Of a stretch of 64,000 nt of DNA, positions 1,620 through 18,069 are shown in pieces. Source of the stretch: Alphaproteobacteria bacterium (GTDB lineage: Bacteria; Pseudomonadota; Alphaproteobacteria; RF32; CAG-239); NCBI GenBank assembly GCA_016283295.1, contig JAEEMQ010000024.1, forward strand, positions 325 through 64,324. Direction: 5' to 3'. The position numbers and the translations under genes were made by a program. Under the pieces are notes generated by a model. The model was not told the origin of the DNA. It worked only from the letters and a program-made list of their open reading frames with translations, and made no database searches. Every line of letters begins with the position of its first letter. The stretch's first letter is position 1.

Positions 1620-1827
1620 ATCAAATTCCTTTCTTATAAATCGAAACTAATATAAAGGTAAACCAACGATATTTAAAAAGGGTAAAGATAATGTCAGATT
1701 GTGGCAATGGTTTATACTAAGACTATTGCAATTGAAATTATTCAGTGTTAGATGTGGATATAATAACTTAATACTTGCAGTTGTTTGTGTAAAGGTTAGA
1801 GTTTAACTATAAGCAAGGAGAGTGTTA

Positions 1828-3093
1828 ATGGATAATGATTCTGTACTGGTAATGAATGTCGGAACGGGGGTTAAAGAAGAAAATAATCATTCTTCTTATA
1901 TAGAAGTAGTAAAGAAAGCAATTGACACAGCTGGCGCTTACAATATTGTTTTAATTTATTCGCAAAATGAGGTTAGTGAGCAAATTGTCGGTGAAATATG
2001 CGAAGATTATAATGAAACGTACCATATAGATAAACACAAACTTCCAAATAAAGAAATGGAATTTAATTTTGATGCGTGTTATAAAGAATATGATGAGTTG
2101 TTGAGAGATTATGCCGACAAACATATTATTCTTGATGTAACGCACGGAACGAAGGCAATGAGTGCGGCTCTTTATGCAGTGGGTTTGCACTATGATGTCA
2201 GAATTTTTCAATATAGCAAGAAGATAGAAAATAGTGACGGAGATTTTGTTGCCGGTGCGGAAACTATAGAAATTTTTGAGGCCTCATACGCAAGGTGGCG
2301 TGGGATATTCAAACAATGCCGGACATTGTTTGCCTCCAGACAATACGAAGCCGTAAAGGATATTGTTTCTAACGAAAAGTGCCCGAAAAATTTGGTTCGT
2401 GCAAAGGACGATTGTATCCAATTATCTGAATTTTGTGCCGCTTGGGATAGATTCGATTATAATATGGCCTTAGCGAAATTAGAAGAACTAGAAACTACAA
2501 TTCCGGAATTGAATTATGAGTATAGTCCTCAGGTCGAGAAATTGTTAAGTGTCTTGGCAGACGGCACCTCTCCATTAGAAAGAGCCAAATATCTTATGTT
2601 TGATTTGTATGCTAACGGATTAAGAAGATTGAAAAATGCTCAATACGAAGATGCCGGTGTCAGAGCTTATCGTATGGCAGAAATGTTGGGACAAATATAT
2701 TTAATGAAAGAAGGGTATCAATCTGACAGAATGCCTGCTTCAGATAAGAAAGTAAGTAGTTTTGCCGAAGCAAAAGGTATGCGATCAGAGGGAGGAACTT
2801 ATCGATTTAACAGAACTCAGGTAATAGATTTTTTGGACCAACAGTTAAACTATAATCCAAATGATATAAGATTTTTGAGAGATATAGAGAAAGATGTCCG
2901 TGATTTGCGAAACAAATCCATTCTGATTCACGGATATACAGCAAAAGTTGTTTCATCTGAAAGATTAGAACGTATTTTCAGTAGACGGCTATTTCCAAAG
3001 ATGAAAGAACTTATTCAAGAATCGGAATTTAACGAAATTCTGCAATCAGCTATGTTTTTGAACAATAATTTTAAGGCAGAAAATAATGAATGA
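1828..3093 (+). CDS. CARF-HEPN ancillary effector, Cas02710 (TIGR02710)-like, Csm6/Csx1 class
   Basis: N-terminal Rossmann-like CARF motifs (VMNVGTG, LDVTHGTKAMSAALY). C-terminal HEPN-type R-x6-H motif (LRNKSILIHGY). About 420 aa, as expected for the family. AGGAG lies 7 nt before the ATG at 1828; the track ORF starts at GTG 1822. The 3' end overlaps the cas10 start by 8 nt. Confidence 0.7.
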   Translation: MDNDSVLVMNVGTGVKEENNHSSYIEVVKKAIDTAGAYNIVLIYSQNEVSEQIVGEICEDYNETYHIDKHKLPNKEMEFNFDACYKEYDELLRDYADKHIILDVTHGTKAMSAALYAVGLHYDVRIFQYSKKIENSDGDFVAGAETIEIFEASYARWRGIFKQCRTLFASRQYEAVKDIVSNEKCPKNLVRAKDDCIQLSEFCAAWDRFDYNMALAKLEELETTIPELNYEYSPQVEKLLSVLADGTSPLERAKYLMFDLYANGLRRLKNAQYEDAGVRAYRMAEMLGQIYLMKEGYQSDRMPASDKKVSSFAEAKGMRSEGGTYRFNRTQVIDFLDQQLNYNPNDIRFLRDIEKDVRDLRNKSILIHGYTAKVVSSERLERIFSRRLFPKMKELIQESEFNEILQSAMFLNNNFKAENNE

Positions 3094-5602
3094 ATTGCTT
3101 ATACCATCGTGCCGTATGGCATTTTCGGCATTGATACACGATATCGGAAAGTTTGCCGAGCGTGCAAAAATAAATATCTCGCCGGCGGAAAAAGAGAATA
3201 ATGTGCATATCTATTGTCCGTTTAATGAACAAGGCGGATACCATACGCATATCCACGCGGCATATACGGGTATAGCCATCGACATTATTGAAAAGTATCT
3301 GCCTGCCATAAATAATACGGATACATTTCCGTTTCAGACGGATGACAAAGATAATTCCGTAATCAACGCGGCGGCGAAGCATCATCGACCGAATACATAT
3401 TTGCAAAATATAATCAGCACGGCAGACCGATTATCAAGCGCGTTTGAGCGCACAAAATATGATGAATATAACAATACATTGGATAATGAAAACTATCAAC
3501 AGGCGCGGCTTATTCCGCTGTTTGATAAATTGTTTGCCAAAGACAGACAAGTTGATTTCAAGTATCGATATCCTTTGGAAATTATGTCGCCGAAAGGTAT
3601 ATTTCCGGAGTTAAAACACAGCATTGATAAAGAAGAAGCAACTAAGGAATATAATCGGCTTTGGAACGGCTTTATACAAGATGTGCAAAAAATACGTAAC
3701 CGTGAAAATTGGAATTTGTGGTTAGATAATTTTGATACACTGTATGCTCTGTATGCACAAAATATTCCGTCAGCATCATATAAAACATTAGCCGATGTTT
3801 CGTTGTATGACCATTCAAAAAGCACGGCGGCACTGGCAACAGCGCTTTGGCGGTATCATCTTGAAACAAAAACGGAAACAATCGATGCATTGAAAAATGA
3901 TTCGGAACAAAAGTTTTTGCTTATTCAGGGCGATGTTTCGGGCATACAGGATTATATCTTTGAAACAGGAAAACATTCGCGCAAAAATGCGTATAAGTTT
4001 TTACGCGGACGTTCTTTTATGATTTCGCTGTTTTGTGAATGTGCCGCACTTAAAATACTGGATACGCTCGGGTTGCCTTCAACTTCGCAAATAATGAATG
4101 CGGCCGGAAAATTTGTTATTGTGGCACCGAATACCGATGAGGTGAAAAAACAACTCGGGCAAGTTAAAAATGAACTGAATAACTGGTTTAAATCAGAATA
4201 TTACGGCTTGGTTTCGGTCGGAATTGCATCAATTGAAGCTTCGCAGCAAGATTTTGAAAATAAAAACTTTTCATCTTTACAGGAGAATATTTATCATTCA
4301 TTAAGTATCGCTAAAATGCAAAAGTTTGATTTATGTCACGAATATTCGGAATTTGATGACTTTTTAACGCGATATAACAAAGATAAAGGCGTTTGTTGTT
4401 ATGACGGAAAAATGCCGGCAGAAGAATTGGTCCCGAATACCGAAAATGATTGGGCTTGCAAGCGTTGTAAGGATATTCTCTCATTAAGCGAACATTTAAC
4501 GCGGCAAAGCCGGATATTTATTTCGCAAACACCGCAAGACAACGGTTTCAAAACCGATATATTAGGATATTATGTCGGTTGGCAAAAATCAGACGATGAT
4601 CTTCGGATATGGGATATTTCTTTACCGACAAATGATGAAAAATCAATGTATTGCGGTTATGCTAAGCGCTATATTAATGCCTATATTCCGAGATTTACGG
4701 AAGATGATCTAGCTAAAAACGAAAGTATTTTTACGCCGAATAATAAATTAGAAAAGGCGGAGGCGGATAAGCCGAAAACATTTTCACATTTAGCTGTTGA
4801 AAATTGTATGTTTGAAGGGAATAAAATAAAAACAGTCTCGGCATTGATGTGTGTGAAAGGCGATATTGATAATTTAGGACATATTTTGCAAGCAGGTCTA
4901 AAGGAAACGACATTTGCAACAATGGCGGGGCTGAGCCGTCAAATCAATAACTTTTTTGCCGTATGGCTGCCTGATTTGTGTCAGACAAAAGCTAAAAATA
5001 TATATACGGTGTTTGCTGGCGGTGATGATTTTTATTTAATCGGACCGTGGTTGGATATGGTAGAGATTATACCGATTATCAGAAAAAAGTTTGCCGAATA
5101 TGTTTGTAATAATGTTCAGATTACTTTCTCGGTAGGTATGTGTATGACGCGTTCCGGTGATGATGCGGTTAATATGTCGGATATGGCTGAAAATGCACTC
5201 GAAAAAGCAAAGAAGCGTGAAGTAGGCAATGAAACAAAAAATGCGGTATGTTGTTTTAATCAAGTGGTTTCCTATACCGATTATGAAAACCTTTTGGAAC
5301 AAGAAAAAACGTTGGAACAGCTGCATCAAAAGTATGGGATATCCGGTAGTTACATATATGGTCTTTTGTCGTTGTGTGAAGATGCTGATGCCGTAAATAA
5401 AGATTTTATGCGCGCTATGTGGCGTTCGAAATTAGTGTACCGAACACAGCGAATGATTGAGACCAATCGCAACATTAAAGATGAAGATAAACAAACTGTA
5501 ACAAACACAATTGTTCAACATATTGCTTCGGCCATTGAACAATATAAAACAGACTACAAAATAGCATTATTTATATGGCTTTATAAACATAGGGAGAACT
5601 GA
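3086..5602 (+). CDS. cas10: Cas10 (Csm1), type III large subunit with HD nuclease and GGDD cyclase motifs
   Basis: 838 aa. HD motif SALIHDIGKF at the N-terminus, Cys-rich zinc finger (CCYDG...CKRC), and palm motif FAGGDDFYLIGPW. Confidence 0.92.
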   Translation: MNELLIPSCRMAFSALIHDIGKFAERAKINISPAEKENNVHIYCPFNEQGGYHTHIHAAYTGIAIDIIEKYLPAINNTDTFPFQTDDKDNSVINAAAKHHRPNTYLQNIISTADRLSSAFERTKYDEYNNTLDNENYQQARLIPLFDKLFAKDRQVDFKYRYPLEIMSPKGIFPELKHSIDKEEATKEYNRLWNGFIQDVQKIRNRENWNLWLDNFDTLYALYAQNIPSASYKTLADVSLYDHSKSTAALATALWRYHLETKTETIDALKNDSEQKFLLIQGDVSGIQDYIFETGKHSRKNAYKFLRGRSFMISLFCECAALKILDTLGLPSTSQIMNAAGKFVIVAPNTDEVKKQLGQVKNELNNWFKSEYYGLVSVGIASIEASQQDFENKNFSSLQENIYHSLSIAKMQKFDLCHEYSEFDDFLTRYNKDKGVCCYDGKMPAEELVPNTENDWACKRCKDILSLSEHLTRQSRIFISQTPQDNGFKTDILGYYVGWQKSDDDLRIWDISLPTNDEKSMYCGYAKRYINAYIPRFTEDDLAKNESIFTPNNKLEKAEADKPKTFSHLAVENCMFEGNKIKTVSALMCVKGDIDNLGHILQAGLKETTFATMAGLSRQINNFFAVWLPDLCQTKAKNIYTVFAGGDDFYLIGPWLDMVEIIPIIRKKFAEYVCNNVQITFSVGMCMTRSGDDAVNMSDMAENALEKAKKREVGNETKNAVCCFNQVVSYTDYENLLEQEKTLEQLHQKYGISGSYIYGLLSLCEDADAVNKDFMRAMWRSKLVYRTQRMIETNRNIKDEDKQTVTNTIVQHIASAIEQYKTDYKIALFIWLYKHREN

Positions 5603-5603
5603 A

Positions 5604-6056
5604 ATGGAATTATCAAATAATAAACGAAGTTTTACACCGCAAAGTCGTGATTTTCACAGTGGTGTGAAAGTTTTAGAAGACAGAACATTGCCGAATTTTG
5701 ATATAAGAAATCTTACAAAGGACTTGTTTGATAAAACGGCGGATGATTGCGCAAAAATAATTTCAGAATGCAAAGATCAGAATAAATCTACTCAAATTCG
5801 CCGATTTTATGATGAGTTGGTAATGTGGGAAGATCGAGCTTCTGTTTCTGAGATAGCATATAAAAATGCTGAACCTTTCATTTTTATGATAAAGTCAAAA
5901 GTTGCGTATGCCAAGGGACGTAAAACCGTCGATGCAACGTTCAAAAAATTTATGGATAAAGTAATTGATCAAATTTCCGACGCTAAAACATTGAAAAATG
6001 CCAAAATGTTTATGGAAGCGGTTATGGGCTTTTACAAGTCATATAGACAAGACTAA
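5604..6056 (+). CDS. csm2: Csm2 (Cas11) small subunit
   Basis: 150-aa helical protein directly after cas10 (1-nt gap). Contains the STQIRRFYDEL motif typical of Csm2. Confidence 0.8.
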   Translation: MELSNNKRSFTPQSRDFHSGVKVLEDRTLPNFDIRNLTKDLFDKTADDCAKIISECKDQNKSTQIRRFYDELVMWEDRASVSEIAYKNAEPFIFMIKSKVAYAKGRKTVDATFKKFMDKVIDQISDAKTLKNAKMFMEAVMGFYKSYRQD

Positions 6057-6071
6057 AAAAGGAGAAAATAG

Positions 6072-6716
6072 ATGAGTTTTACGATAAAAATGCTTACGGG
6101 AAAAATTAAGACTGTTACTGGTTTGCATATTGGTTCCGGCAATTCGGAAATGCACATCGGCGGCACGGATAATCCGGTAATTAAAAACGGCTCGGAGCCT
6201 TATATTCCAGGTTCTTCACTAAAAGGCAAGTTGCGTAGTTTGCTTTGTTTATATACTGGTGATGCCAATTCGGAAATCGTAGCGAAATTGTTCGGCGTTT
6301 CTGCCGATGATAAAACAAACAAGGCGGAACTGATTAAAACCACTCGTTTATCTTTTTGGGATTGTTTTATCACTGAAGAATGGCGTAAAAATATCATTGA
6401 TAAGCAAGCCGGATTTACCGAAGTAAAAATGGAAAACACAATTGACCGCGCCACCGGAACATCTAATAATCTCCGCAATACAGAGCGCGTAATACCGGAA
6501 ACCGAATTTGACTTCAAACTGACCTTGAAAGTTTTCGATGATGAAGATGTGCTTCCGGTTGTTTTAGGAACAATGAAGTTGTTGGAAATGGATAGCTTGG
6601 GCGGTTCCGGCTCGCGCGGTTACGGCAAAATTAAATTTATCGACCTGAAAATCGATGATACTGATATTCAAGGCGATTTTGATGCAGTTAAACCTTTTGA
6701 AAAACGTTTTATTTAG
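6072..6716 (+). CDS. csm3: Csm3 (Cas7) RAMP backbone subunit
   Basis: 214 aa. Motifs TGLHIGSG, IPGSSLKGKLRSLL and a C-terminal G-rich loop LGGSGSRGYGKI. AGGAGAA ribosome-binding site. Confidence 0.92.
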   Translation: MSFTIKMLTGKIKTVTGLHIGSGNSEMHIGGTDNPVIKNGSEPYIPGSSLKGKLRSLLCLYTGDANSEIVAKLFGVSADDKTNKAELIKTTRLSFWDCFITEEWRKNIIDKQAGFTEVKMENTIDRATGTSNNLRNTERVIPETEFDFKLTLKVFDDEDVLPVVLGTMKLLEMDSLGGSGSRGYGKIKFIDLKIDDTDIQGDFDAVKPFEKRFI

Positions 6717-6728
6717 CGAGAGTTTTAT

Positions 6729-7676
6729 ATGAATTTATATCAGATAAACATCCGTCCGTTCGGCAGTTTTTATTCGTCGATAAAAGGCGATATGCTGTTT
6801 GGAATGTTTTGTTGGGCGGTTGTTGAAAATTTAGGAGAAGAGCGGCTCAAGAAGTGCCTAGAAGGATATACGCAAAATCGTCCGTTTATTGTGTTTTCTG
6901 ATGCATTTCCTTGCGGATATCTGCCTAAGCCGACATTGCCATTTACATATTATCAAAAAGAGCAAAAAGACAGGAGCGAAGCCGTTCGCAACCGTAAAGA
7001 TTTTAAGCGTAAAAATTGGCTTGCGGCAGATAAAATAGGTATGCCGACAAATCAGATGTCGAAACTGTTTCAAGAGATTCCGTATATTGCAAAATCGCTT
7101 TATACCGCGGTGCATCTTGATCCTGTGTCTCAGCACACGAGCGGTGGACAATATTCGGCATATACTACTGAGCAATTGTCTTATACGAAGGATTTGACAT
7201 TGTATGTTCTGATTGACGAACAGCGAATTTCGCCCTCTGAAGTGCAAACACTTCTGCAATATATCGGGCAAAGCGGCTACGGTAAAAAAGCTTCGGCCGG
7301 AAACGGCAAGTTTGAACTGCTTGATGATTTGAAGGCGGTTGAGTTTTCGGATGTTTCATCGCCGTCATACTTAACTTTGGCACCGTGTGTTCCGCAACAA
7401 CAAACATTTGATGCTAACAAAAGTTTTTACCATATCTTTGTGCGCTTCGGCAAACACGGCAATATGGCGGCGCGTTCCGGATGTCCATTTAAAAAGCCGG
7501 TTATGACGGCGGATACGGGAGCCGTATTCACATTTTTGCCGGAGCACAAGGTGGATAAGCCGAAATTTATCGGCACCGGCATAAGCAATATTTCGCAAAC
7601 CGAGCCGGCAACTGTATTTCAAGGGTATGCACCGGTTATTCCGCTAAAAATAACGGAGGCAGAACATGGAAAATAA
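6729..7676 (+). CDS. csm4: Csm4 (Cas5-like) RAMP subunit
   Basis: 315 aa. Position between csm3 and csm5. N-terminus (IRPFGSF...GDMLFGMFCWA) and GYGKKASAGNGKF glycine loop. Confidence 0.8.
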   Translation: MNLYQINIRPFGSFYSSIKGDMLFGMFCWAVVENLGEERLKKCLEGYTQNRPFIVFSDAFPCGYLPKPTLPFTYYQKEQKDRSEAVRNRKDFKRKNWLAADKIGMPTNQMSKLFQEIPYIAKSLYTAVHLDPVSQHTSGGQYSAYTTEQLSYTKDLTLYVLIDEQRISPSEVQTLLQYIGQSGYGKKASAGNGKFELLDDLKAVEFSDVSSPSYLTLAPCVPQQQTFDANKSFYHIFVRFGKHGNMAARSGCPFKKPVMTADTGAVFTFLPEHKVDKPKFIGTGISNISQTEPATVFQGYAPVIPLKITEAEHGK

Positions 7677-8964
7677 AGTATTGCAAGCGTATAATCTGAA
7701 AATAACGACATTTTCGCCGATTCACATCGGGGATAATGTTGATTTTGAGCCGACGGAATATATTATTGCAAATTCTGACGCGGTAGTGCAAATTGCGCCA
7801 AAATCGGCAGAAACGGAAGATTTTATTATATGTCCGGAATGCGGATATAAAAACAATATTGCCAAATTAGATAAGAAGATACCTCAATGTTTGGATTGTG
7901 AAAGCGATTTAGAGTTGCCGGAGCATATAGCAAAGAAAGAATCTGAAAAACTTCCCGCCAACAGCACACCGTCATATCTTTACACATTTACCCCGAAGCA
8001 GATGGCAGAAGCACTATCGGACATTGATAAGAAAAAGTTGCTGACCGTGGCGCGCGAGGGCGATTATACTTCGTTGCAGAAGTTCTTTAAGGATAACACG
8101 TCTAAAATCATCAAAACTGCAGTAAAACATTCAAAAGTGTGTCCGGCGGTTGCAAAGCAATATGCGGATAAATGCGGCAATATGGATGTTCCGCAAAAAG
8201 AAAGAAATCAGTTTAAAATTGAAAAAAACATTTGCAATTTGGCAACCGATTTGGCGTATATTCCCGGTTCGTCGCTTAAAGGGGCAATTCGCACGGCATT
8301 GATGTCGGAGCGCAATCAATCAGCAGGGGTGACTTATAGAGATATTGAAAAGAAGAAACAAACACCGAAAGGCGAGAAAATAACTTATACCGCCGCGCCT
8401 GCCGAAAGAAAAATATATGAATACGGAGATCCGGCACAGGACCCGTTTAAATACCTGAAAATCGGCGATTCCACACCGCAGAATGCGTATTTGACCGAAA
8501 TCTGCGTGGCAAAGAATTATAAACGTCGCACCGGAGAAACGCAAATGCCGGTTTCCATCGAGGTTATTCCGCACGACATTGCGTTTACTACGGAATTGTC
8601 ATTAGCCGAAAACTCGTTTGCCAAAGCGCCGACACACAAAAAGCTGCCGGATACAATGTCGGATATCAGAACGGCGTGCAATAATTTTTACGGCGATATT
8701 TTGGCGCATGAGCAGTCGTATATCAACCAACCGGCATTATATACAAAGCTGAAACAGGCCTCGCAAAAACCGAATGCTTTTATTATCCGCATCGGCAAGC
8801 ACAGCGGCGCCGAGAGTGTGACCATCGACGGTCTGCGACGGATTCAAAACAGAAAATGCCCGAATTATTTTATGGACCATTCCACAACCTATTGGTTGGC
8901 GGAAAACGGACGCGAAAATTTGCCTTTCGGTTGGTGCGTTGTGGAGTATGATGAGGTAAAATAA
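7666..8964 (+). CDS. csm5: Csm5 RAMP subunit with an N-terminal CxxC...CxxC insertion
   Basis: 432 aa. Motifs SPIHIGD and YIPGSSLKGAIRTAL. CPEC (residues 56-59) and CLDC (residues 75-78) are encoded at 7831-7899. GGAGG ribosome-binding site. Overlaps csm4 by 11 nt. Confidence 0.8.
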   Translation: MENKVLQAYNLKITTFSPIHIGDNVDFEPTEYIIANSDAVVQIAPKSAETEDFIICPECGYKNNIAKLDKKIPQCLDCESDLELPEHIAKKESEKLPANSTPSYLYTFTPKQMAEALSDIDKKKLLTVAREGDYTSLQKFFKDNTSKIIKTAVKHSKVCPAVAKQYADKCGNMDVPQKERNQFKIEKNICNLATDLAYIPGSSLKGAIRTALMSERNQSAGVTYRDIEKKKQTPKGEKITYTAAPAERKIYEYGDPAQDPFKYLKIGDSTPQNAYLTEICVAKNYKRRTGETQMPVSIEVIPHDIAFTTELSLAENSFAKAPTHKKLPDTMSDIRTACNNFYGDILAHEQSYINQPALYTKLKQASQKPNAFIIRIGKHSGAESVTIDGLRRIQNRKCPNYFMDHSTTYWLAENGRENLPFGWCVVEYDEVK

Positions 8965-9896
8965 TGTTTCCGCTCATTAAAATACGCTTAATCTTCAAAG
9001 CATTGCAAGACATAAACTTTCCGTATTATGCCGGCTCGGCGTTGCGCGGTGTGTTCGGCAAATCGCTGCGCCGTGTTTCCTGTTTAACCCCAAAGACCAA
9101 ATGCACCGAATGCGCCATGGCAATAAATTGTCCGTATGCTTCAGTGTTTGAAAACGGATATGTCGCACAGGGCAAGCCGAATAAAAATGTGCCGAATCCG
9201 TATATAATCGAGCCGATGCCGTTGGGAGCAAAAGAAGTCAAACAAGGCGAATGTTTTGCATTTGAGCAAATTATTTTCGGCACGGCAGTCAGCAAATTGT
9301 CGTATATTCTGTTGGCATGGGTAAAAACCGGCAATTTGGGCTTTACAAAAGAGCGAACACCGGCGCAGTTGTTGCGTATTGAGCAAATAGAGCCGAATGG
9401 TAACATTTTGTTGTTGCACGACTTGGAAAATCCGACGCAGGAAACGGATTTGGCACAACCGACGTATGAACTTTTGCCGGAAAAAGTGGTGGAGCGACTT
9501 CAAATAGTGTTAGAAACACCGCTGAGGATACATCATCTCGGTCATCCGATAGTGCCGGAAGCGTTGACGGCGCAGGATTTTTTGGTATCAATGATGCGTA
9601 AACAGGCAAATATGGCGCAATATCATATTGCTGATTATGCACCGAATAAAAAAATGCTGCACGACATTATTCCGAGTATAAAGATAGAAAAAGCTGATTT
9701 GCACTGGCTGGATTGGAAACGTTATTCTTCGCGACAAAAGCAAGAAATTGCATTAGGCGGTATTATCGGCACGTTTGAATTGAGCGGAGATTTAGAAAAA
9801 CTATATCCGTATATAAAGGCGGGAGAATATTTTCATTGCGGCAAAAGCACAGTTATGGGTTTGGGTAAATACCGCGTTATAGAACATCGTAAATAA
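8964..9896 (+). CDS. cas6: Cas6 pre-crRNA endoribonuclease (Cys-cluster variant)
   Basis: 310 aa. N-terminus AGSALRGVFGKSLRR followed by C-x6-C-x2-C-x4-C. C-terminal glycine-rich loop HCGKSTVMGLGKY. Last gene before the leader and array, with ATG overlapping the csm5 stop. Confidence 0.75.
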   Translation: MFPLIKIRLIFKALQDINFPYYAGSALRGVFGKSLRRVSCLTPKTKCTECAMAINCPYASVFENGYVAQGKPNKNVPNPYIIEPMPLGAKEVKQGECFAFEQIIFGTAVSKLSYILLAWVKTGNLGFTKERTPAQLLRIEQIEPNGNILLLHDLENPTQETDLAQPTYELLPEKVVERLQIVLETPLRIHHLGHPIVPEALTAQDFLVSMMRKQANMAQYHIADYAPNKKMLHDIIPSIKIEKADLHWLDWKRYSSRQKQEIALGGIIGTFELSGDLEKLYPYIKAGEYFHCGKSTVMGLGKYRVIEHRK

Positions 9897-9999: not shown

Positions 10000-10828
10000 A
10001 TAATAGAAGCCCCTGATTTGAGGGGATTGTGATACCAAGCTCAACATTGCTCTTAATAAGTCACGATAATAGAAGCCCCTGATTTGAGGGGATTGTGATA
10101 CTTTATATCCGTTATTAACAAGATAAAGAATTATAATAGAAGCCCCTGATTTGAGGGGATTGTGATACTAACGGAATCCAATTCCTTTTCCACAAGTGAT
10201 AATAGAAGCCCCTGATTTGAGGGGATTGTGATACTCAGCATAACTCCTCAATCTCTTGTTTTGTATAATAGAAGCCCCTGATTTGTGGGGATTGTGATAC
10301 AAACGTTTGTGTCGGTAGCTGTGAACGTCTATAATAGGAGCCCCTGATTTGAGGGGATTGTGATACTTCTTGAATATACTTTTTATCTTCTGTACTATAA
10401 TAGAAGCCCCTGATTTGTGGGGATTGTGATACTTGTAATACATTTCAACTTTCTTTCATGGTATAATAGAAGCCCCTGATTTGAGGGGATTGTGATACTA
10501 TCGTTATGTATTGCGTATGTGTTAGGCAATAATAGAAGCCCCTGATTTGAGGGGATTGTGATACAGATACATCGTATGAAAGCCAACACTCAAAATAATA
10601 GAAGCCCCTGATTTGAGGGGATTGAGATACGGATAGTAAAACATAAGGCCTGTCGTTCATATGATAGAAGCCCCTGATTTGAGGGGATTGTGATACTTTT
10701 ATCTGATTCATAGTCAGACCACTCGGAATAATAGAAGCCCCTGATTTGTGGGGATTGTGATACATTCTTAAGACATTTTTCAATAATCTTATTATAATAG
10801 AAGCCCCTGATTTGAGGGAATTGAGAAC
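10000..10828 (+). CRISPR. CRISPR array, leader-proximal block: 13 repeats, 12 spacers
   Basis: 36-nt repeat ATAATAGAAGCCCCTGATTTGAGGGGATTGTGATAC. Repeat starts: 10000, 10066, 10133, 10199, 10265, 10331, 10397, 10463, 10529, 10595, 10661, 10728, 10794. Spacers are 30-31 nt. Point variants occur in repeats 5, 6, 7, 10, 11 and 12. Repeat 13 is 35 nt and degenerate (..GAGGGAATTGAGAAC). Confidence 0.95.
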
Positions 10829-11010
10829 GCCCTAATGTCATCCCTCGAAGTGCGCCGCGCGTCACTTCGTCAAGGGATCTGACCTTTGCGAAGCGCAATA
10901 TTCTATGTGAATCGGAAGCAATGCTGTCGCATTGGAAGATGAGATCCTTGGACGCACGAATGCACAGTATCGTGCGAAGGATGACATCATCATTAAGGGG
11001 ATTGAGATAA
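10829..11010 (+). ncRNA. structured segment occupying the loop position of a repeat-like hairpin (possible MITE-like insertion or Cas6-processed structured RNA)
   Basis: GCCCT (10829-10833) and CATTAAGGGG (10991-11000) mimic the two arms of the repeat stem and are followed by the repeat handle ATTGAGATAA (11001-11010). Outer helix: 10830-10847 pairs with 10975-10999, with a CATCAT bulge. Inner hairpins lie at 10840-10878, 10919-10934 and 10953-10976. The strand is assumed from the array orientation. Confidence 0.45.
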
Positions 11011-11340
11011 GAACTCATCGGCAACTGTCTGTGCCTTACTATAATAGTAGCCCCACTTTTACGGGGATTGAGATACTGCGTTAGGAATTTCAAGAACAGG
11101 GCAAGTATAATAATAGCCCCGTAATTGCGGGGATTGAGATACCCAATATTTAATGACGTTTGTATAATCACCATAATAATAGCCCCGTAATTGCGGGGAT
11201 TGAGATACAAAGCAAGCGTTATAAATGAACGGTATTGTATAATATAAGCCCCCGACACAGCGGGGATTGAGACACATAGTAATATGTTGCTTGTCTTATA
11301 TACATATAATATAAGCCCTGCAGTTGCGGGGATTGAGATG
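10997..11340 (+). CRISPR. CRISPR array, distal block: one 3' half-repeat plus 5 divergent repeats, 5 spacers
   Basis: Half-repeat GGGGATTGAGATAA (10997-11010) is followed by a 30-nt spacer. Full repeats start at 11041, 11107, 11173, 11239 and 11306 (35-37 nt), all with 30-nt spacers. The conserved parts are the ATAATA 5' end and the GGGGATTGAGAYAC 3' end. Stem sequences differ but stay complementary. Confidence 0.85.
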
Positions 11341-11511
11341 TACAAAGGAAAAGAAATATATAAGATTATACAAGATAAGCAGAAGAAAGTATCCTCTAAA
11401 ACTATTTCCCTTTTTTGTCCTGGCATCAGAACAGAAATAGATGATAAGTTTATTAAAGAAGTAGAAAAAGTTCTAAAAGAATACGAAAAAAACAAAGCCG
11501 CCCAAGATTGA
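11338..11511 (+). CDS. possible 57-aa ORF starting in the last repeat (MYKGKEIYKIIQDKQKK...)
   Basis: Its ATG is formed by the last 3 nt of the terminal degenerate repeat (..GATTGAGATG). The hairpin GCCGCCCA/TGGGCGGT (11497-11527) overlaps the stop. No ribosome-binding site and no recognisable domain. Confidence 0.2.
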   Translation: MYKGKEIYKIIQDKQKKVSSKTISLFCPGIRTEIDDKFIKEVEKVLKEYEKNKAAQD

Positions 11512-11584
11512 TTTACTAATGGGCGGTTACCTAATTGACAGACACTGACTGGGGTCAAGCCCCTTCCTCAATTAACTTTATTCC

Positions 11585-11641
11585 GGAGAGCCACGCTGTA
11601 AAGTAGATAAAACTACCTTATGCTACAGACCGTGGCTCTCC
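11585..11641 (+). repeat. hairpin element H1 (GGAGAGCCACG ... CGTGGCTCTCC)
   Basis: Perfect 11-bp outer stem. Inner helices CTGTA/TACAG and AAGTAG/CTACCTT close an ATAAAA loop. A second copy lies at 11780-11831. Confidence 0.6.
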
Positions 11642-11726
11642 ATAATAACTGAAAGCGATAGAGGACTTACACACTATATCTATCTTTAAGGTTGACAGAC
11701 CGAATTCTACAACCACTTTCAGCCTA

Positions 11727-11768
11727 CCTAATCCCGACCGCATCTACGACACTTTGTCTGGGATTAGG
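11727..11768 (+). promoter_or_regulatory. 12-13-bp-arm palindrome overlapping a promoter (possible operator)
   Basis: CCTAATCCCGAC (11727-11738) pairs with GTCTGGGATTAGG (11756-11768), with one bulged base. It abuts TATAAT at 11769-11774. Confidence 0.4.
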
Positions 11769-11774
11769 TATAAT
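11746..11774 (+). promoter_or_regulatory. sigma70-like promoter firing into H2
   Basis: -35 ACGACA (11746-11751), 17-bp spacer, consensus -10 TATAAT (11769-11774). The predicted start falls at about the first G of H2 (11780). Confidence 0.45.
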
Positions 11775-11779
11775 CTGTT

Positions 11780-11831
11780 GGAGAGCCACGCCGCTTGGAG
11801 AAAACTCCCTATAACGCAGTCCGTGGCTCTC
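11780..11831 (+). repeat. hairpin element H2 (GGAGAGCCACG ... CGTGGCTCTC)
   Basis: Same outer stem as H1 (10-11 bp). The inner sequence differs, with helix GGAG/CTCC closing an AAAA loop. Confidence 0.6.
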
Positions 11832-11934
11832 AGCAGTAATTATATTATAACGCAACAAAATCAACATTCAAGAGCCAAAAACAGCAAAAGTTAACAGTAA
11901 TGCCACAATCTGACAATTCTGCAGTTTTGATAGC

Positions 11935-11963
11935 TTGCAAACAAAATTTACCGGTGCTAATAT
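11935..11963 (+). promoter_or_regulatory. sigma70-like promoter of the small-ORF operon
   Basis: TTGCAA (11935-11940), 17-bp spacer, TAATAT (11958-11963). Followed by an AGGGAGG ribosome-binding site and ATG at 11984. Confidence 0.5.
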
Positions 11964-11983
11964 TTCAATAAAGGGAGGCCAAA

Positions 11984-12130
11984 ATGGGAATTTTAGTTTT
12001 ATTGCTTATCGGTTATGTTATTTGGAAGTGTGTCAGTAGTGCCCCGGTAAGCACCGGAAGGGAAGACAGAGAATTTGAAGATATGTGCCTGTCTTTGCAA
12101 GATGTAGATGATGATTTCGATGTGTTTTAG
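11984..12130 (+). CDS. 48-aa small membrane peptide (MGILVLLLIGYVIWKCVSSAPVSTGREDREFEDMCLSLQDVDDDFDVF)
   Basis: Absent from the ORF track because it is under 60 aa. Strong ribosome-binding site AAGGGAGG 6 nt upstream. Hydrophobic N-terminal helix followed by an acidic tail. TAG at 12128-12130. Confidence 0.55.
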   Translation: MGILVLLLIGYVIWKCVSSAPVSTGREDREFEDMCLSLQDVDDDFDVF

Positions 12131-12603: not shown

Positions 12604-12948
12604 ATGGAGAATCTTATGGAAAACAGCCAGTTTCAGAGCATTGCCGAACAAAATGATGACTTTCGCTTGCACCCTTCAAAAGGTACGTTTTGCCTCACTT
12701 CCGGTATTCGTGCTTTGGGCAAGGATTGCGTTAGAGAAATCATCAACATAGTTCGCAATTTCAACAGCTTCAACGAAGATAATGATCCTTACGGTGAGCA
12801 TGACTTCGGTGCCTTTTATTACCGTAATCGTCAGATTTTCTTCAAAATTGATAACTACGACCGCGAGTTTCTTTACCTTTCGCCCGATGTTACCAATCCG
12901 AAGCTGACCAATAAAGTTTTAACAATTATGCTTGCACAGGAGTATTAA
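12604..12948 (+). CDS. DUF3768 family protein (plasmid/ICE-associated)
   Basis: Motifs EDNDPYGEHDFGAF, FFKIDNYD and the C-terminal VLTIMLAQEY are characteristic of DUF3768. TTGACA lies upstream at about 12553. Confidence 0.75.
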   Translation: MENLMENSQFQSIAEQNDDFRLHPSKGTFCLTSGIRALGKDCVREIINIVRNFNSFNEDNDPYGEHDFGAFYYRNRQIFFKIDNYDREFLYLSPDVTNPKLTNKVLTIMLAQEY

Positions 12949-12950
12949 AA

Positions 12951-13130
12951 ATGGAATACGATGTTATATCAACACCTGATTTAGAGGAACTTTGCCTTTG
13001 GGTAAACGAAAAACTGCGTCAAGGTTGGCGTTTGCAGGGCGGTATTGCTACGGTGGTTCTGCCGAAAAGATATACGGTTTTTTACCAAGCGATTGCCCGA
13101 GAAAGAAAAAAGAGAGTTTCACAAAATTAA
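12951..13130 (+). CDS. DUF1737-like small protein (59 aa)
   Basis: Not in the track. ATG lies 2 nt after the DUF3768 stop. Sequence MEYDVISTPDLEELCLWVNEKLRQGWRLQGGIA... carries the GW-x-x-GG signature. Confidence 0.5.
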   Translation: MEYDVISTPDLEELCLWVNEKLRQGWRLQGGIATVVLPKRYTVFYQAIARERKKRVSQN

Positions 13131-13162
13131 TTATTATGTTTCTTTCGTAAAAATCCAAATGT

Positions 13163-13190
13163 GCCGCAGGTCTCAACGCCTGCGGCTTTA
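13163..13190 (+). terminator. hairpin terminator after the DUF3768-DUF1737 pair
   Basis: GCCGCAGG (13163-13170) pairs with CCTGCGGC (13179-13186), followed by TTTAT. Confidence 0.5.
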
Positions 13191-13202
13191 TAGGAGAAAA
13201 CC

Positions 13203-13787
13203 ATGACTAACAGTGAATTTGTAGATGACAAGAAAATTAAGGACATTATGCTCTATATTAAGTCAATGAAACACGCCGAGCAAATCCGGATGATGTTTAT
13301 GTGCAGCTTGAACGGGCTTCGCTCCATAAATTTTGCATATTTGCAGGTCAAGGACTGCTATACAGACCAGCTGAAACCCAAAGATGTGATCAATCTTGAT
13401 TACGATAAAAACAAGGGCAAGCATAAATGCTCATACTTTATGAATAGCCAGATGAAGAAGGAATTTGCGGACTATTTGAACTATTTGCAACAAAAATGGG
13501 GTGAAGACCTTTCGCCGGAAACATACTTGTTTACGTCGCAGAAACGGAACCGACCGTATAATCGCGTAAGCATCAGTCGGATGTTTGGCTTCATTTATAA
13601 CAAATTCGGCATAAAGGGAGCCAGTCATTTGGGAAGGCATCTATTTGTTTCAAAACTGGTTAATGCTGGTGTAAATATCTGTTTGGTACAAAAATTAGCT
13701 AATCATCGCAATATAGCAACAACCCAAAAGTATTTTATTTATTCCGAGAAAATGCTGGCTAATGCCGTAGAAAACGTGAGGGTGTGA
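13203..13787 (+). CDS. small (194-aa) tyrosine site-specific recombinase, catalytic domain only (FimB/FimE-sized)
   Basis: Catalytic signature in order: GLRSINF (Arg), ASHLGRHLF (H-x-x-R), LANHRNIATTQKYF (His ... Tyr). No N-terminal SAM-like DNA-binding domain. AGGAGAA ribosome-binding site. Confidence 0.8.
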   Translation: MTNSEFVDDKKIKDIMLYIKSMKHAEQIRMMFMCSLNGLRSINFAYLQVKDCYTDQLKPKDVINLDYDKNKGKHKCSYFMNSQMKKEFADYLNYLQQKWGEDLSPETYLFTSQKRNRPYNRVSISRMFGFIYNKFGIKGASHLGRHLFVSKLVNAGVNICLVQKLANHRNIATTQKYFIYSEKMLANAVENVRV

Positions 13788-13927
13788 CGGGATTGACTGT
13801 ATGAACTATAAATAGCATGTCGTAATAGTGATCTAATTTATAATTTTGCTTGAATTTTGCCCAATTTGGAATTTATAATCATTTTACAAATAACATAAAG
13901 ATTATATTACCAATCTGATTAATCCAA

Positions 13928-16612
13928 ATGAAAGGTCTTAAAATGGCTGATATTTTTGAGCAAATAAAGCAAGAGTATTATTCTATGGATTCTCAGTTAA
14001 AAGATGAGATTTCTTCCGGATATACGCATTTCAAAACAACCTATAATCCTGAAATTCTAAAATCATTAAGCGGCGAAGAACTGCTTGATAAGATGTTTTT
14101 AGGGAAAGGTGATAATGAAAATCTATGCTATTATTTGGAAAAGGATAAAAGAAGTAAGATATATGGCGGAATCGGTGGCGGAAATGCTTCCAAATTTGGT
14201 TTATATTACTCAAAAGATAAAAATTCATGGGTTAAAGGTAAAGGAAATTCCACTCGAATACTGTCTGTGGAAGAAGCCATTGAGGAAGGTATCAAAATCA
14301 GGGATGAGATTGTTGATGCCTGTAAATTGGTATCAAATCTAAAATTTGATACTATTGAGGATTATCGAAAGCTAGATGAGTATAAAAATGGCAGTCAAAA
14401 TATAAAAAATTTATGGGTTAGAAAATATTTGCATATGATGTTTCCAGAACATTTTCCTCTATGGTATAATGCAGATATGCTTGATGCTATTATTCAATAC
14501 TTTGGTGAAATCTCTGAAGATGGTGTATTTGCAAAAGAGGGACAAATTGCAATGATTGCTAAGAGATGCAATATTCCATTAAACCTTTTTTCTAGTTTAG
14601 ATAGTATCGTAGATATAGCACAATCTGTGAAACACTCTGATTGGACGAAAGACAATACAAATAATGAGGGCATCCATTATTGGGTTTGTGCTCCTGGTAG
14701 AAATGCCGAAAAATGGGAGGAATGTTATCAAAAAGGTATTTTGGTTTTAGGTTGGGATGAACTCGGTGATTACAGAGAATATGCAGATAGAAAAGAAATA
14801 GAAGAAGCAATAAAACATTACGATAGTAGTAAAAAAGGTCCCAATAACGATACATTAGCTGTTTGGGGATTTTGCCATGTTATGAAAGAAGGAGATATAG
14901 TGTATGCCAAGAAAGGTAGAACAAAAATTATTGGTCGGGGCATAGTGAAATCCGAATATATATATGATGCTGATAGGCAAGATTATAAAAACATAAGAAA
15001 AGTAGATTGGACGGCTGGAGATTGGGAATTAGCGGAAGAGTGGAGTAAAGCGCCATTAGCCCCCAAAACCCTAACAGATATAACAAAGTACCCAGATTGG
15101 TATCGGAGACTTGAAGATATAACGTTAGGAGTAAGTATGATAAAATCAAAAAAGGATTTACAAATGAGACAAATGCGAAATATTCCATTAAATCAAATTT
15201 TATATGGTCCTCCGGGAACTGGTAAAACATACAACACGGTAATAGAGTGTATTCATATATTAAATAATGATTTATACAATGAATATTTGAACAGTAGTGA
15301 TAAATCAAGATTTTATAAAGATAATCTTTTACCTGAGTACAATCGCCTCAGAGAGCAAGGAGTGATAGAATTTATTACATTTCACCAATCATATTCATAT
15401 GAAGAGTTTGTTGAAGGTATAAAACCAGAGGTTTCTGGTGATACAAAAGAGGTTGAATACAATGTGAAACCAGGTATTTTTAGAACAATTTGTGAAAAAG
15501 CGTCAACACCAACAGTTTTGCAAAATAAGTGGAATATTGATTCAGATGTATCAATATGGAAAGTTTCATTAGGGGGAACCTATGATAACCCAATCAGAAA
15601 AGATTGTTTTGAGAATAATCGGATTAGAATAGGATGGGACGATTATGGGGAGAATTATGAGGACAAGGCAACGGAAGGAAAACGAACTTTAGATGCTTTT
15701 TATCAAAAAATGAAAAAGGGTGATATTGTTTTATCCTGTTATACTAATCGGATAATAGATGGAATTGGAATAGTGGAAGGAAATCCTGTCTTTGATACAT
15801 CATTAAGCGAGTATAAAAGAACAAGGAAGGTCAATTGGATATTAAAAAACATTAGAGAAGATATTTTCAGTATAAATGATGATACAACAATGACTTTACC
15901 TGCTGTATATAAATTAAAGATTCCTTTGAATAAAATAATTGAGATTCTGCATAAGTATAATACTCATGCTCCAGTAACCAAGGAAAATAGTCAGAAGTTT
16001 GTTTTGGTAATTGATGAGATAAATCGTGGTAATATATCTAAAATTTTTGGAGAACTTATTACCTTAATCGAAGAAGATAAGCGTTCAAACCTATCTGTAA
16101 GACTTCCTTATTCACAAGAAACTCTTACTGTACCTAAGAATTTGTATATCATTGGCACAATGAATACATCTGACCGTTCAATTGCGACAATTGATATTGC
16201 TTTGAGGCGGAGATTTACATTTATTCCTAAAATGCCTGACGAAAATTTAGTTCCGGATAAATTTAATATGAAAGAAGCTTTTAAGAATCTAAACAAAAAA
16301 ATACGGATTCTTCTTGATGAAGACCATCAGATAGGTCACAGCTATTTTATGAATATTGAGACTATTTCAGACTTAAAGGAAACTTGGGCGAATAAAATCA
16401 TTCCATTGCTAAATGAATACTTTTACGGTGATTGGACTAAGCTGAGATTGTTAATTCCTGGATTTATTTCTGAAAACCCAATAGAAGATAAAGAATTAGA
16501 AGATGAAATTGGTGAAAATTGTTATTATAGGTTTAAAAATCCTTTTTCATTAAGCGATGATGATTTTATAAAAGCGACAATGGGACGGAAAATTGAAACA
16601 GATAAAGATTAG
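13928..16612 (+). CDS. mcrB: McrB-family AAA+ GTPase with a long N-terminal region and a domain inserted in the AAA+ core
   Basis: Walker A LYGPPGTGKTY. FHQSYSYEEFVEG. Walker B and McrB signature VLVIDEINRGNISKIFGELITLIEEDKR. IIGTMNTSDRSIATIDIALRRRF. Two homologous ~110-aa modules are present, one N-terminal and one between Walker A and Walker B. An alternative start lies at 13943. Confidence 0.85.
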   Translation: MKGLKMADIFEQIKQEYYSMDSQLKDEISSGYTHFKTTYNPEILKSLSGEELLDKMFLGKGDNENLCYYLEKDKRSKIYGGIGGGNASKFGLYYSKDKNSWVKGKGNSTRILSVEEAIEEGIKIRDEIVDACKLVSNLKFDTIEDYRKLDEYKNGSQNIKNLWVRKYLHMMFPEHFPLWYNADMLDAIIQYFGEISEDGVFAKEGQIAMIAKRCNIPLNLFSSLDSIVDIAQSVKHSDWTKDNTNNEGIHYWVCAPGRNAEKWEECYQKGILVLGWDELGDYREYADRKEIEEAIKHYDSSKKGPNNDTLAVWGFCHVMKEGDIVYAKKGRTKIIGRGIVKSEYIYDADRQDYKNIRKVDWTAGDWELAEEWSKAPLAPKTLTDITKYPDWYRRLEDITLGVSMIKSKKDLQMRQMRNIPLNQILYGPPGTGKTYNTVIECIHILNNDLYNEYLNSSDKSRFYKDNLLPEYNRLREQGVIEFITFHQSYSYEEFVEGIKPEVSGDTKEVEYNVKPGIFRTICEKASTPTVLQNKWNIDSDVSIWKVSLGGTYDNPIRKDCFENNRIRIGWDDYGENYEDKATEGKRTLDAFYQKMKKGDIVLSCYTNRIIDGIGIVEGNPVFDTSLSEYKRTRKVNWILKNIREDIFSINDDTTMTLPAVYKLKIPLNKIIEILHKYNTHAPVTKENSQKFVLVIDEINRGNISKIFGELITLIEEDKRSNLSVRLPYSQETLTVPKNLYIIGTMNTSDRSIATIDIALRRRFTFIPKMPDENLVPDKFNMKEAFKNLNKKIRILLDEDHQIGHSYFMNIETISDLKETWANKIIPLLNEYFYGDWTKLRLLIPGFISENPIEDKELEDEIGENCYYRFKNPFSLSDDDFIKATMGRKIETDKD

Positions 16613-17816
16613 AGAATACGAATCATCAACCGATGTATCAAGTAATGATTTAATCTTGTTGAAACGATATTTAGATAAACAAGGTTTATCCGATGCATTT
16701 GATGTTGCTCCAAATAAAATACGTGCATCTTCTTATGTCGGGGTTATAAGGTGTCATAACCTGCAAATTGAAGTTCTTCCGAAACTTCTGGCGGATGAAT
16801 ATGCTAGTGATTCTGTCATTTTAAGAAATCTTCTGTATATGCTATCATATACAAGGAAAATGGAGATTAAGTCCGATAATAATGTTAAGCTCAACAATAG
16901 CAAGAATCCATTTCTTGAGATATTGATACATGAATACGCTACATCTTTATTTGAAAATTTGAGAAAACAAACTCCAAAAACCTATATACATGAACAAAAT
17001 AATCTATCGTATATGAAAGGAAAATTGAATTTTTCCCAGCATATTAAGTACAATTCTACTAATAAGGCGAAGTTTTATTGTGAATATGATGAATTTGCCG
17101 AGAATAATATCTTAAATCAGCTGTTTTTATATGTTTCAAGCCTACTACATCAAATAACGACGAACAATGAGAATAAAAAGATTTTGAAACAGATTATGAA
17201 CTTTTATGCGGATATTGAATTTGTTAGAATATCCTCACAAAGGGCAAATAAAATTAAATTGTTAAGAAATCAACAGTTGTTCCAGAAGGCTTTTGATTTG
17301 GCGAAAATGTTCTTATCACATTTGAGTATTGATTTTAGTAGAAATAAAATTGAAAACATCACTCTTTTGTGGGATATGAATGTTCTATTTGAAGAATACG
17401 TTTTTGAGATAATGCGAAGAAAATGCCCAGAAATATCTGTTACCGCTCAAAAAGGAAAGAAATTATTGGTAGAAGTTGAAAGTAATCATAAAAGACGCAA
17501 TACATTCGTTGATATATTGGTTGAAAAAGGTAACGAGAAGATAATTGTTGATACGAAATATAAAAAATTTGAATCTCTTTATGATTTCAGTAATGCGGAT
17601 GTATTCCAGGTTTCAACATATTGCCTTTTGCACGACACGAAGAAAGCAATCTTGATCTATCCACAATGGAGTGACGATGCCCAAACAACACAAATTTGCC
17701 ATCTGAATGCGCCTGAAGAGAATTATATCATCCAATTTTCTACCGTTAATTTACGGAAAGATTTAAGAGTAAGTAATATTGAAGATGAGTTGATTAATAT
17801 AATCAATCAAAATTAG
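16593..17816 (+). CDS. mcrC: McrC-like nuclease subunit (PD-(D/E)xK)
   Basis: 407 aa. Overlaps the mcrB 3' end by 20 nt (TTG start). Motif FVDILVE...IIVDTKYKK fits D...(D/E)xK. Confidence 0.75.
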   Translation: MKQIKIREYESSTDVSSNDLILLKRYLDKQGLSDAFDVAPNKIRASSYVGVIRCHNLQIEVLPKLLADEYASDSVILRNLLYMLSYTRKMEIKSDNNVKLNNSKNPFLEILIHEYATSLFENLRKQTPKTYIHEQNNLSYMKGKLNFSQHIKYNSTNKAKFYCEYDEFAENNILNQLFLYVSSLLHQITTNNENKKILKQIMNFYADIEFVRISSQRANKIKLLRNQQLFQKAFDLAKMFLSHLSIDFSRNKIENITLLWDMNVLFEEYVFEIMRRKCPEISVTAQKGKKLLVEVESNHKRRNTFVDILVEKGNEKIIVDTKYKKFESLYDFSNADVFQVSTYCLLHDTKKAILIYPQWSDDAQTTQICHLNAPEENYIIQFSTVNLRKDLRVSNIEDELINIINQN

Positions 17817-17827
17817 ACCATGGGCTA

Positions 17828-17880
17828 TAAATGTTAAACAATGTGGCGAATCTGCACAAAGTTTAACATTTTTTTATTTT
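17828..17880 (+). terminator. rho-independent terminator of mcrBC
   Basis: AAATGTTAAAC (17828-17838) pairs with GTTTAACATTT (17860-17870), followed by a T-run. Confidence 0.7.
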
Positions 17881-17929
17881 CTGTATTTTGCTCATTTTCA
17901 AAAGTGCTTATTTTACGCGGTTTTCCGAG

Positions 17930-17963
17930 AAAATGTTAAAGAATGCACATTCTTTAACATTTT
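17930..17963. promoter_or_regulatory. perfect 16-bp-arm palindrome
   Basis: AAAATGTTAAAGAATG ca CATTCTTTAACATTTT. It shares the TGTTAAA/TTTAACA motif with the mcrC terminator stem. Confidence 0.5.
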
Positions 17964-18069
17964 GAGATTTACATGACAAATTTTACTTTTTATGCAAAAA
18001 TATGATTAAAAAATAAAGTTTTTTAAATTTCAGAAAAACTTTTAACACAGAACTAACATTTTTTAGAAA

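Follow-up and report, generated by a model that had tools for sequence, protein, structure and literature searches.

The locus considered here raises the question of how a strongly folding segment came to lie inside a CRISPR array. The array belongs to a type III-A system and lies in a 64-kb stretch of Alphaproteobacteria bacterium contig JAEEMQ010000024.1, the whole of which was analysed and is called the window below. Its thirteenth repeat (R13) is degenerate and no spacer follows it. The segment comes next, and then a half-repeat, a 30-nt spacer and the next repeat at 11041. A preliminary description of the window had recognized all of these features, together with the Cas6 gene at 8964-9896, and they were borne out. 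It had offered two origins for the segment, namely a small mobile element resembling a miniature inverted-repeat transposable element (MITE) or a structured RNA that borrows the stem and handle of the repeat so that Cas6 excises it. Our conclusion, to which we give a probability of about 0.85, is that the array contains an inserted copy of a dispersed MITE/REPIN-like repeat and that the segment is this copy.

Related copies in other genomes carry this conclusion. The 18-mer GTCATCCCTCGAAGTGCG was scanned across 185,579 species-representative genomes and returned 10 loci. The collection gave no self-match, so the window's own genome lies outside it. BLAST and nhmmer identified true homologues at seven of the 10 loci, with 74-91% identity to the window over ~150 nt and nhmmer E values from 1e-32 to 1e-47; the family score of the window copy is E=7e-46. 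Seven full or near-full copies lie outside the window (loci L027-L031 and L035). "Proteobacteria bacterium MAG-R073" has at least four copies on three contigs (L027, L028, and L031 with two), and RUG13901, a metagenome-assembled genome (MAG) from rumen, has at least three on three contigs (L029, L030, and L035). The left hairpin alone is present in the Alphaproteobacteria genome UBA3773 (contig L034). GC content of the copy loci is 40-48%, and the named relatives of the window's Cas6 come likewise from Alphaproteobacteria MAGs.

All seven other copies, and the partial one at L034, are intergenic and adjoin ordinary genes. The neighbours include genes for an outer-membrane beta-barrel protein at L028 and an ABC transporter at L035; L030 adjoins a nucleoside phosphorylase gene, L029 a class II aminoacyl-tRNA synthetase gene, and L027 a tRNA gene. 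The copies at L028, L029, L030, and L035 are located after stop codons or between convergent genes. The CRISPR repeat core occurs at none of the other loci, including the partial L034. The preliminary description had asked whether copies exist outside CRISPR arrays; they do, at the seven sites in MAG-R073 and RUG13901, and these homologues, with their sharp ends and terminal inverted repeats, uphold its MITE-like reading. No transposase was seen adjoining any copy at the loci examined (8-kb pieces of other genomes).

The ends of the element were set by aligning the copies with 60-nt flanks. Similarity begins and ends sharply at TGTCAT...ATGACA, and the flanks are unrelated. The aligned family places the element at 10836-10986, a shorter unit than the 10829-11000 of the preliminary description. 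All full copies share 12-nt terminal inverted repeats, TGTCATCC[C/T]TCG, which replace the TAATG..TCATCCCTCG proposed earlier. The left one is unchanged in every full copy, but L028 lacks its first T. The plan of the element is mirror-symmetric, with TGTC before the left hairpin, GACA after the right hairpin, and ~40 nt in each end hairpin. GC content is 51% in the element stretch compared to 41% in the window. The element is non-coding, and the sole open reading frame (ORF) in its 151 nt is a spurious read-through frame.

The claim that the segment is structured was confirmed, and folding of 10829-11010 beats chance on both strands (z=-3.8 on the plus strand and z=-5.1 on the minus strand, with 0 of 200 shuffles as good). 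RNAalifold gave 43 consensus pairs, 15 of them with changes on both sides. By explicit count, 98.5% of cells in the consensus pairs are paired; this level of covariation was reached by 0 of 500 shuffles, and slid controls had at most three covarying pairs. The left hairpin is perfect and invariant, with all 15 pairs kept in eight of eight copies. In the central hairpin, five of six pairs are changed on both sides (GTGGCAC/GTGCCA in the RUG13901 copies), and two versions are known. The right hairpin has compensatory changes in 10 of 16 pairs, with 99-100% of cells paired, and it occurs in three versions: CGCACGA/TCGTGCG with ATACCT/AGGTAT or ATCCTT/AAGGAT, CGACTTG/CAAGTCG with ATCGCT/AGCGAT, and CGGTCTG/CAGACCG with ATCGCT/AGCGAT. 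The small hairpin keeps its three central pairs in seven of eight copies and shows no covariation.

Some of the helices proposed in the preliminary description are therefore supported by the family and others are not. The left hairpin, CAATGC/GCATTG, and CGCACGA/TCGTGCG (extended here by ATCCTT/AAGGAT) stand, but the long-range TCATCCCTCG/CGAAGGATGA and GGATCT/AGATCC pairings are not what covaries. Bases of the right end covary with local partners and not with the invariant left end, so the family supports local hairpins and neither a long terminal rod nor GGATCT/AGATCC. The compensatory pairs are almost all Watson-Crick and show no strand bias. There is a single G-U pair, so nothing indicates one transcribed strand. 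Watson-Crick pairs without strand bias, together with equal folding on both strands, fit hairpins formed at the DNA level. The helices are genuine, but they are the element's own and not those of a CRISPR-specific RNA. Structure and covariation thus belong to a non-CRISPR family, and the proposal that the segment arose as a structured RNA using the repeat stem and handle for Cas6 excision is not sustained. Coordinates of the element, its parts, and the surrounding array are listed in Table 1.

Table 1. Features of the interrupted type III-A CRISPR locus and of the inserted element (window coordinates).
Feature	Position	Strand	Description
Type III-A cas operon	1822..9896	+	CARF protein, Cas10/Csm1, Csm2, Csm3, Csm4, Csm5, Cas6 (NCBIfam and Pfam matches)
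CRISPR array part A	10000..10829	+	13 near-identical 36-nt repeats (ATAATAGAAGCCCCTGATTTGAGGGGATTGTGATAC), period 66-67 nt
Left junction	10830..10835	+	CCCTAA, between R13 and element; outside family alignment
Dispersed hairpin-ended repeat, MITE/REPIN-like	10836..10986	.	151 nt, TGTCAT...ATGACA
Left terminal inverted repeat	10836..10847	+	TGTCATCCCTCG; mirror of 10975-10986
Left bulged hairpin	10840..10878	.	ATCCCT-CGAAGTG-loop-CACTTCG-TCA-AGGGAT; 15 pairs
Small hairpin	10886..10898	+	TTGCG-AAG-CGCAA, then T-rich tail; weakly terminator-like (consensus scan)
Central hairpin	10919..10934	.	CAATGC-TGTC-GCATTG
Right bulged hairpin	10944..10982	.	ATCCTT-GGA-CGCACGA-loop-TCGTGCG-AAGGAT; inverted mirror of left hairpin
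Right terminal inverted repeat	10975..10986	-	TGTCATCCTTCG read on minus strand
Right junction	10987..10992	+	TCATCA, between element and half-repeat; outside family alignment
3' half-repeat	10993..11010	+	TTAAGGGGATTGAGATAA; 3' stem arm and handle of CRISPR repeat
Spacer after half-repeat	11011..11040	+	30 nt
CRISPR array part B	11041..11341	+	Five repeats, starts 11041, 11107, 11173, 11239, 11306

The element, which we take to be mobile, probably entered an existing type III-A array directly 3' of the hairpin of R13. This repeat (10794-10829, ATAATAGAAGCCCCTGATTTGAGGGAATTGAGAACG) ends in ...GAGGGAATTGAGAACG and has a degenerate 3' arm and handle. Its hairpin lies 6 nt to the left of the element, and a copy of the 3' arm and tail lies 6-10 nt to the right. 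The half-repeat at 10993-11010 would be a duplicate of the last ~15-18 nt of R13, made at insertion. The spacer at 11011-11040 would then be the original spacer 13, and no unit would have been lost.

Two copies in other genomes have comparable surroundings. At L028, the element follows the upstream gene's intrinsic terminator at a distance of 5 nt; the terminator's final 13 nt (TCGTTTTTTTGTG) are found again 28 nt past the element, a flanking duplication matched in one of 200 shuffles. At L029, a 38-nt terminator sequence is present on both sides of the element (0 of 200 shuffles). At three of eight sites, a long duplication therefore lies a few bases from the element, and its length varies from site to site (38 nt at L029, 13 nt at L028, and ~14-18 nt in the window). 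The L028 and L029 duplications parallel the R13 3' end and the half-repeat of the window. At both loci the terminator hairpin is just 5' of the element, and its 3' part recurs on the element's other side; the half-repeat may therefore be a duplicated R13 end. We hold this duplication step tentatively, at slightly less than even odds. The element may also prefer the 3' side of hairpins. The preliminary description had suggested targeting of palindrome loops, but the placement seen is just 3' of hairpins with the 3' part of the hairpin duplicated.

Several observations weigh against insertion of a dispersed element by this route. The 3' end of R13 (10812-10829, TTGAGGGAATTGAGAACG) is identical to the half-repeat (TTAAGGGGATTGAGATAA) at only 13 of 18 positions, and the half-repeat is equally similar to other repeats. 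Neither a target-site duplication of short fixed length nor a shared target motif is seen in the flanks of the family alignment, whose left-hand tetranucleotides vary (CTAA, AACC, AAGA, AACT, GTTA, and CAAA). The 64-kb window has no second copy of the element, its multi-copy status being shown in other MAGs only, and no cognate transposase or REP-associated tyrosine transposase (RAYT) was found among the 10 small ORFs of the window. An empty site was not recovered from the Cas6 contigs, the downstream look-ups, or the metagenome spacer scan, so we infer the insertion rather than observe it. Contigs with the exact Cas6 or its homologues (91-74% identity) break 140-1000 nt into the array, and contigs found via the downstream DUF3768 protein or the 48-aa ORF start past the array. 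The metagenome scan with spacer 11011-11040 gave one contig (L037/L039), which also carries this spacer and starts inside the half-repeat, at window position 11004. Finally, the flanks GCCC-TAA and TTAA-GGGG are complementary to each other, and they look like the GCCCCGTAATTGCGGGG hairpin of repeats 15 and 16, which would be compatible with insertion in a repeat loop.

Under loop insertion, the element entered the loop of a separate repeat (GCCC-TAA^...TTAA-GGGG), and that repeat was later fused to R13 when ~40 nt, comprising spacer 13 and its own first nine bases, were deleted. The complementarity of CCCTAA and TTAAGGG agrees with this, the joined GCCCTAA+TTAAGGGG resembles the GCCCC-GTAATTGC-GGGG hairpin of repeats 15 and 16, and AGAA(C)GCCC at 10824-10832 is loosely like AGAAGCCCC at the 5' side of the repeat. 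However, this takes two events where one suffices, does not account for the six extra bases TCATCA, and relies on a 5' arm of just 4 nt; other copies of the family are located 3' of complete hairpins, not in hairpin loops. The preliminary description had also placed the insert in a repeat loop. Such a position is possible, but the 5' stem arm that it recognized is only GCCC (G10829 and the left junction), and the nine bases upstream are the 3' end of R13. The closing helix of such a loop (GGGG 10997-11000 with CCC 10830-10832) has P~0.33 in a partition-function prediction for 10728-11142 and competes with pairing of the same GGGG with CCCC 10804-10807 of R13 (P~0.59). We consider loop insertion with deletion unlikely.

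It is less probable still that two independent arrays abut here, with array A ending in the degenerate R13, an older 5'-truncated array B beginning at 10993, and the element lying between them. Terminal repeats of CRISPR arrays are commonly degenerate in their 3' part, and R13 fits this pattern. Repeat types also differ across the element, as ATTGTGATAC with a uniform loop is found in 11 of 13 part-A repeats, while ATTGAGATAC with variable loops is found in part B. Against separate arrays, the ATTGAGA variant is already present in R13 and R10 of part A, and the R13-element and element-half-repeat gaps are 6 nt each. No leader-like AT-rich sequence precedes array B, and orientation, stem, and handle are common to both parts.

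An inserted element could still affect processing of the array transcript. Because GGGG 10997-11000 is predicted to pair with either CCC(C) arm, a Cas6 substrate at the half-repeat is conceivable. A cut at the half-repeat would give the CRISPR RNA (crRNA) of spacer 11011-11040 a near-normal tag (UGAGAUAA), and the upstream product would bear the mutated tag UGAGAACG followed by the structured element. Nothing suggests selection for this upstream product. Judging from the sequence, transcription of the array through the element into the old repeats is plausible, because the element holds only a weak 5-bp terminator-like stem (10886-10898). If Cas6 does cut at the repeat remnants beside the element, this would be a side effect of insertion.

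It is doubtful, at about the level of the abutting arrays, that an undescribed GTCAT-headed family of gut and rumen Proteobacteria both inserts just 3' of DNA or RNA hairpins (terminators) with long target duplications of variable length and yields a Cas6-released RNA of ~180 nt at this locus. Most improbable is an exapted element in which Cas6 cuts in R13 and the half-repeat free a functional RNA (for regulation, as a decoy, or for array insulation); the product would be stable, structured, and ~180 nt long, or else crRNA-like with the mutated tag. In its favour, the predicted pairing of GGGG 10997-11000 with either CCC(C) arm could form a hairpin-plus-handle substrate, the handle ATTGAGATAA and the 30-nt spacer register are intact, and the Cas6 gene is 100 nt upstream of the array. 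Against it, none of the seven other full or near-full copies is in a CRISPR array, the conserved structure shows no bias to one strand, R13 has a mutated 3' arm and tag, the closing helix, of only 4 bp, encloses a multiloop of 160 nt, and the element is absent from the truncated array starts of related Cas6 loci. At no other copy is the structure conserved together with CRISPR repeats or handle, as would characterize a Cas6-released CRISPR RNA.

Division of CRISPR arrays by MITEs is already documented, as far as the articles that cite such cases describe them. In Anabaena sp. PCC 7120, CR_6 and CR_7 have a 134-nt MITE between them (Hou et al., 2019, cited in bioRxiv 10.1101/2020.04.14.041012), and a 132-bp MITE is reported from a euryarchaeal CRISPR locus (cited in PMC4390879). 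As outlined in those citing articles, the likeness to the window is that a non-coding inverted-repeat element of ~130-150 bp divides an array into two blocks of the same kind of repeat. Compared to these outlines, the window differs in having another sequence family, a bordering half-repeat (a possible long target duplication), and diverged repeats on either side. A description of the window element's sequence family was not found in full-text literature searches by sequence and peptide motifs. Like a MITE, the element is small (under about 500 bp), non-coding, and bounded by terminal inverted repeats. Its family is dispersed in MAG-R073 and RUG13901, and the 64-kb window holds one copy. It does not have the short fixed target-site duplication of a MITE, as the bases next to its ends do not repeat.

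A REPIN consists of short imperfect palindromes that share a conserved head and form an inverted doublet; it is intergenic, is often located just after a gene or between convergent genes, and lacks a short target-site duplication. REP (repetitive extragenic palindromic) sequences and REPINs are mobilized by RAYTs, which are IS200/IS605-like Y1 transposases. The window element has a (T)GTCAT head and a bulged hairpin at each end in mirror orientation, and copies are intergenic after the 3' ends of genes. It resembles REP/REPIN elements in its GTCAT head, inverted doublet, intergenic position, compensated hairpins, lack of a short target duplication, and clusters of partial units. Unlike them, its arms are bulged hairpins of ~40 nt, its centre of ~60 nt has a conserved hairpin of its own, and tandem 30-nt half-site units flank some copies; a RAYT gene is not among the 10 small window ORFs.

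Other repeat classes show partial similarity. Correia (Neisseria), ERIC, RUP, and BOX-type repeats are ~100-150 bp, have terminal inverted repeats, and are dispersed through intergenic DNA. Once transcribed, they fold strongly, and they can affect the processing or termination of transcripts. The window element is like them in size, terminal inverted repeats, dispersed intergenic placement, and strong folding, but it has no sequence similarity to them and no Correia-like TA duplication. Palindrome-associated transposable elements (PATEs), which are derived from IS200/IS605, have subterminal hairpins and ends that are not inverted repeats, and they insert 3' of a fixed tetra- or pentanucleotide. 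The element shares with PATEs the subterminal hairpins, the lack of a short target duplication, and placement next to hairpins. It does not belong with them, as its ends are inverted mirrors and its flanking bases are not conserved.

Three other identities were considered for the segment and rejected. A known ribozyme, riboswitch, or tracr-like RNA was discarded because Rfam had no match. Searches of the window and of 10700-12000 (E<=10, both strands) gave no match overlapping 10829-11010; matches within 10700-12000 were all sub-threshold, including a weak CRISPR-DR at repeats 15-16, and the only gathering-level match in the window is a tRNA at 24236-24309. The relatives' copies had no Rfam match at E<=0.1. 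Decayed repeat-spacer units were rejected because the gap of 247 nt is no multiple of 66 and its interior lacks similarity to the repeats. The leader of a second array was rejected because the segment is GC-rich, not AT-rich. A protein-database search with the element's open minus-strand frame (mis-called ORFs) gave no candidates, and BLAST found no match to the insert in PLSDB plasmids or INPHARED phages.

This locus advises caution, as a folding, covarying segment framed by CRISPR repeat parts mimics a new Cas6-processed RNA, yet a dispersed hairpin repeat that entered the array explains it. The locus also adds to the natural cases in which a small mobile repeat has split a CRISPR array. If the placement 3' of hairpins reflects the mechanism of insertion, CRISPR repeats that form hairpins would be targets one could predict, and arrays without an adaptation module could be truncated or re-partitioned by insertions of this kind.

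The cas operon of the window has strong profile support, with a Cas10/Csm1 match at E=1e-189 and Cas6 matching PF10040 at E=1e-12. Profile annotation of the window neighbours found no cas1 or cas2 adjacent to the operon. The leader between the Cas6 gene and the array is 100 nt and AT-rich. Repeats of part B keep the GCCCC/GGGG stem and ATTGAGA handle, their loops differ, and they are older than those of part A. The loops are ACTTTTAC, GTAATTGC (twice), CGACACAGC, and TGCAGTTGC, and some of the changes lengthen the stem. Their sequences suggest that the distal repeats may have persisted for a long time under selection for the Cas6 hairpin, without new acquisition. Where a T precedes a repeat, the repeat start reads TATAAT, and sigma-70 -10-like boxes therefore recur along 10000-11345. 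A promoter scan caught several of them (for example, 10770-10798 and 11018-11045); they are likely incidental.

Other GTCAT-headed repeats were observed near copies of the family. In MAG-R073, two clusters (L031 560-1279 and L027 6700-7360) contain the element amid tandem 30-nt units, each of which is half an end hairpin (TGTCATCCCTTGCGGTGTGCGATAATAACC / TGTCATCCCT..., and ...CCGTGCGAGGTATGACAATA / ...GGTATGACAATA). The L031 cluster adjoins a gene for a 95-aa GIY-YIG protein (L031 276-563), and the L027 cluster adjoins a tRNA gene. Both clusters also include another GTCAT-headed repeat (GTCATCCTGAACGAATGTGAAGGATCC...), and yet another is present at L030 and L035 (GAGATTACCACG...CTCGTAATGAC). 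The MAG-R073 clusters have the look of intergenic repeats of REP/BIME (bacterial interspersed mosaic element) or MITE type. In the window, two solo motifs like the right end of the element (TGAGGTATGACA and CAGAGGATGACG) are located at 45792-45861, in an intergenic region after the ORF at 45093-45779. The count of three GTCAT-headed half-sites in the window does not differ significantly from the 1.3 expected.

IMG/VR scans with pieces of the element gave chance-length matches or none, except for a 25-nt exact identity (TCGGAAGCAATGCTGTCGCATTGGA) between 10912-10936 of the element and 13289-13313 of L025, a 94.7-kb IMG/VR contig. The identity extends 7 nt beyond the searched 18-mer and falls in the coding region of a 291-aa ORF, with no wider nhmmer similarity. 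It may be due to chance.

The setting of the CRISPR locus (47-1619 upstream and 12604-22083 downstream) resembles a defence island. Upstream are a WYL/WCX regulator and a T5orf172 (GIY-YIG-superfamily) protein. Downstream are DUF3768, a 194-aa tyrosine-recombinase fragment, McrB-like AAA_5 and McrC, two AAA_14/DUF4143 ATPases, and a Fic protein.

Directly past the array, a stretch of ~320 nt (11530-11850) folds exceptionally well (z=-7.6, 0 of 100 shuffles). It contains two similar hairpins in direct orientation, GGAGAGCCACG...CGTGGCTCTCC at ~11583-11641 and a second at ~11779-11831 that is one C shorter at its 3' side. This stretch has no Rfam match at gathering score and no plasmid or phage match, and its one IMG/VR pattern match is unrelated. 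It is kept in the strain-variant contigs L037/L039 and partly in L038. These metagenome contigs match the window through the distal array, the structured region, and as far as the 48-aa ORF (11984-12130), and they diverge right after (~12133). Past the divergence, in place of the window's DUF3768, integrase fragment, and McrBC, L038 has an 85-aa ORF and a gene for a 1155-aa HEPN_Swt1/SNF2 helicase protein. By sequence comparison, this divergence after the 48-aa ORF points to probable strain-level swapping of defence genes beside the array.

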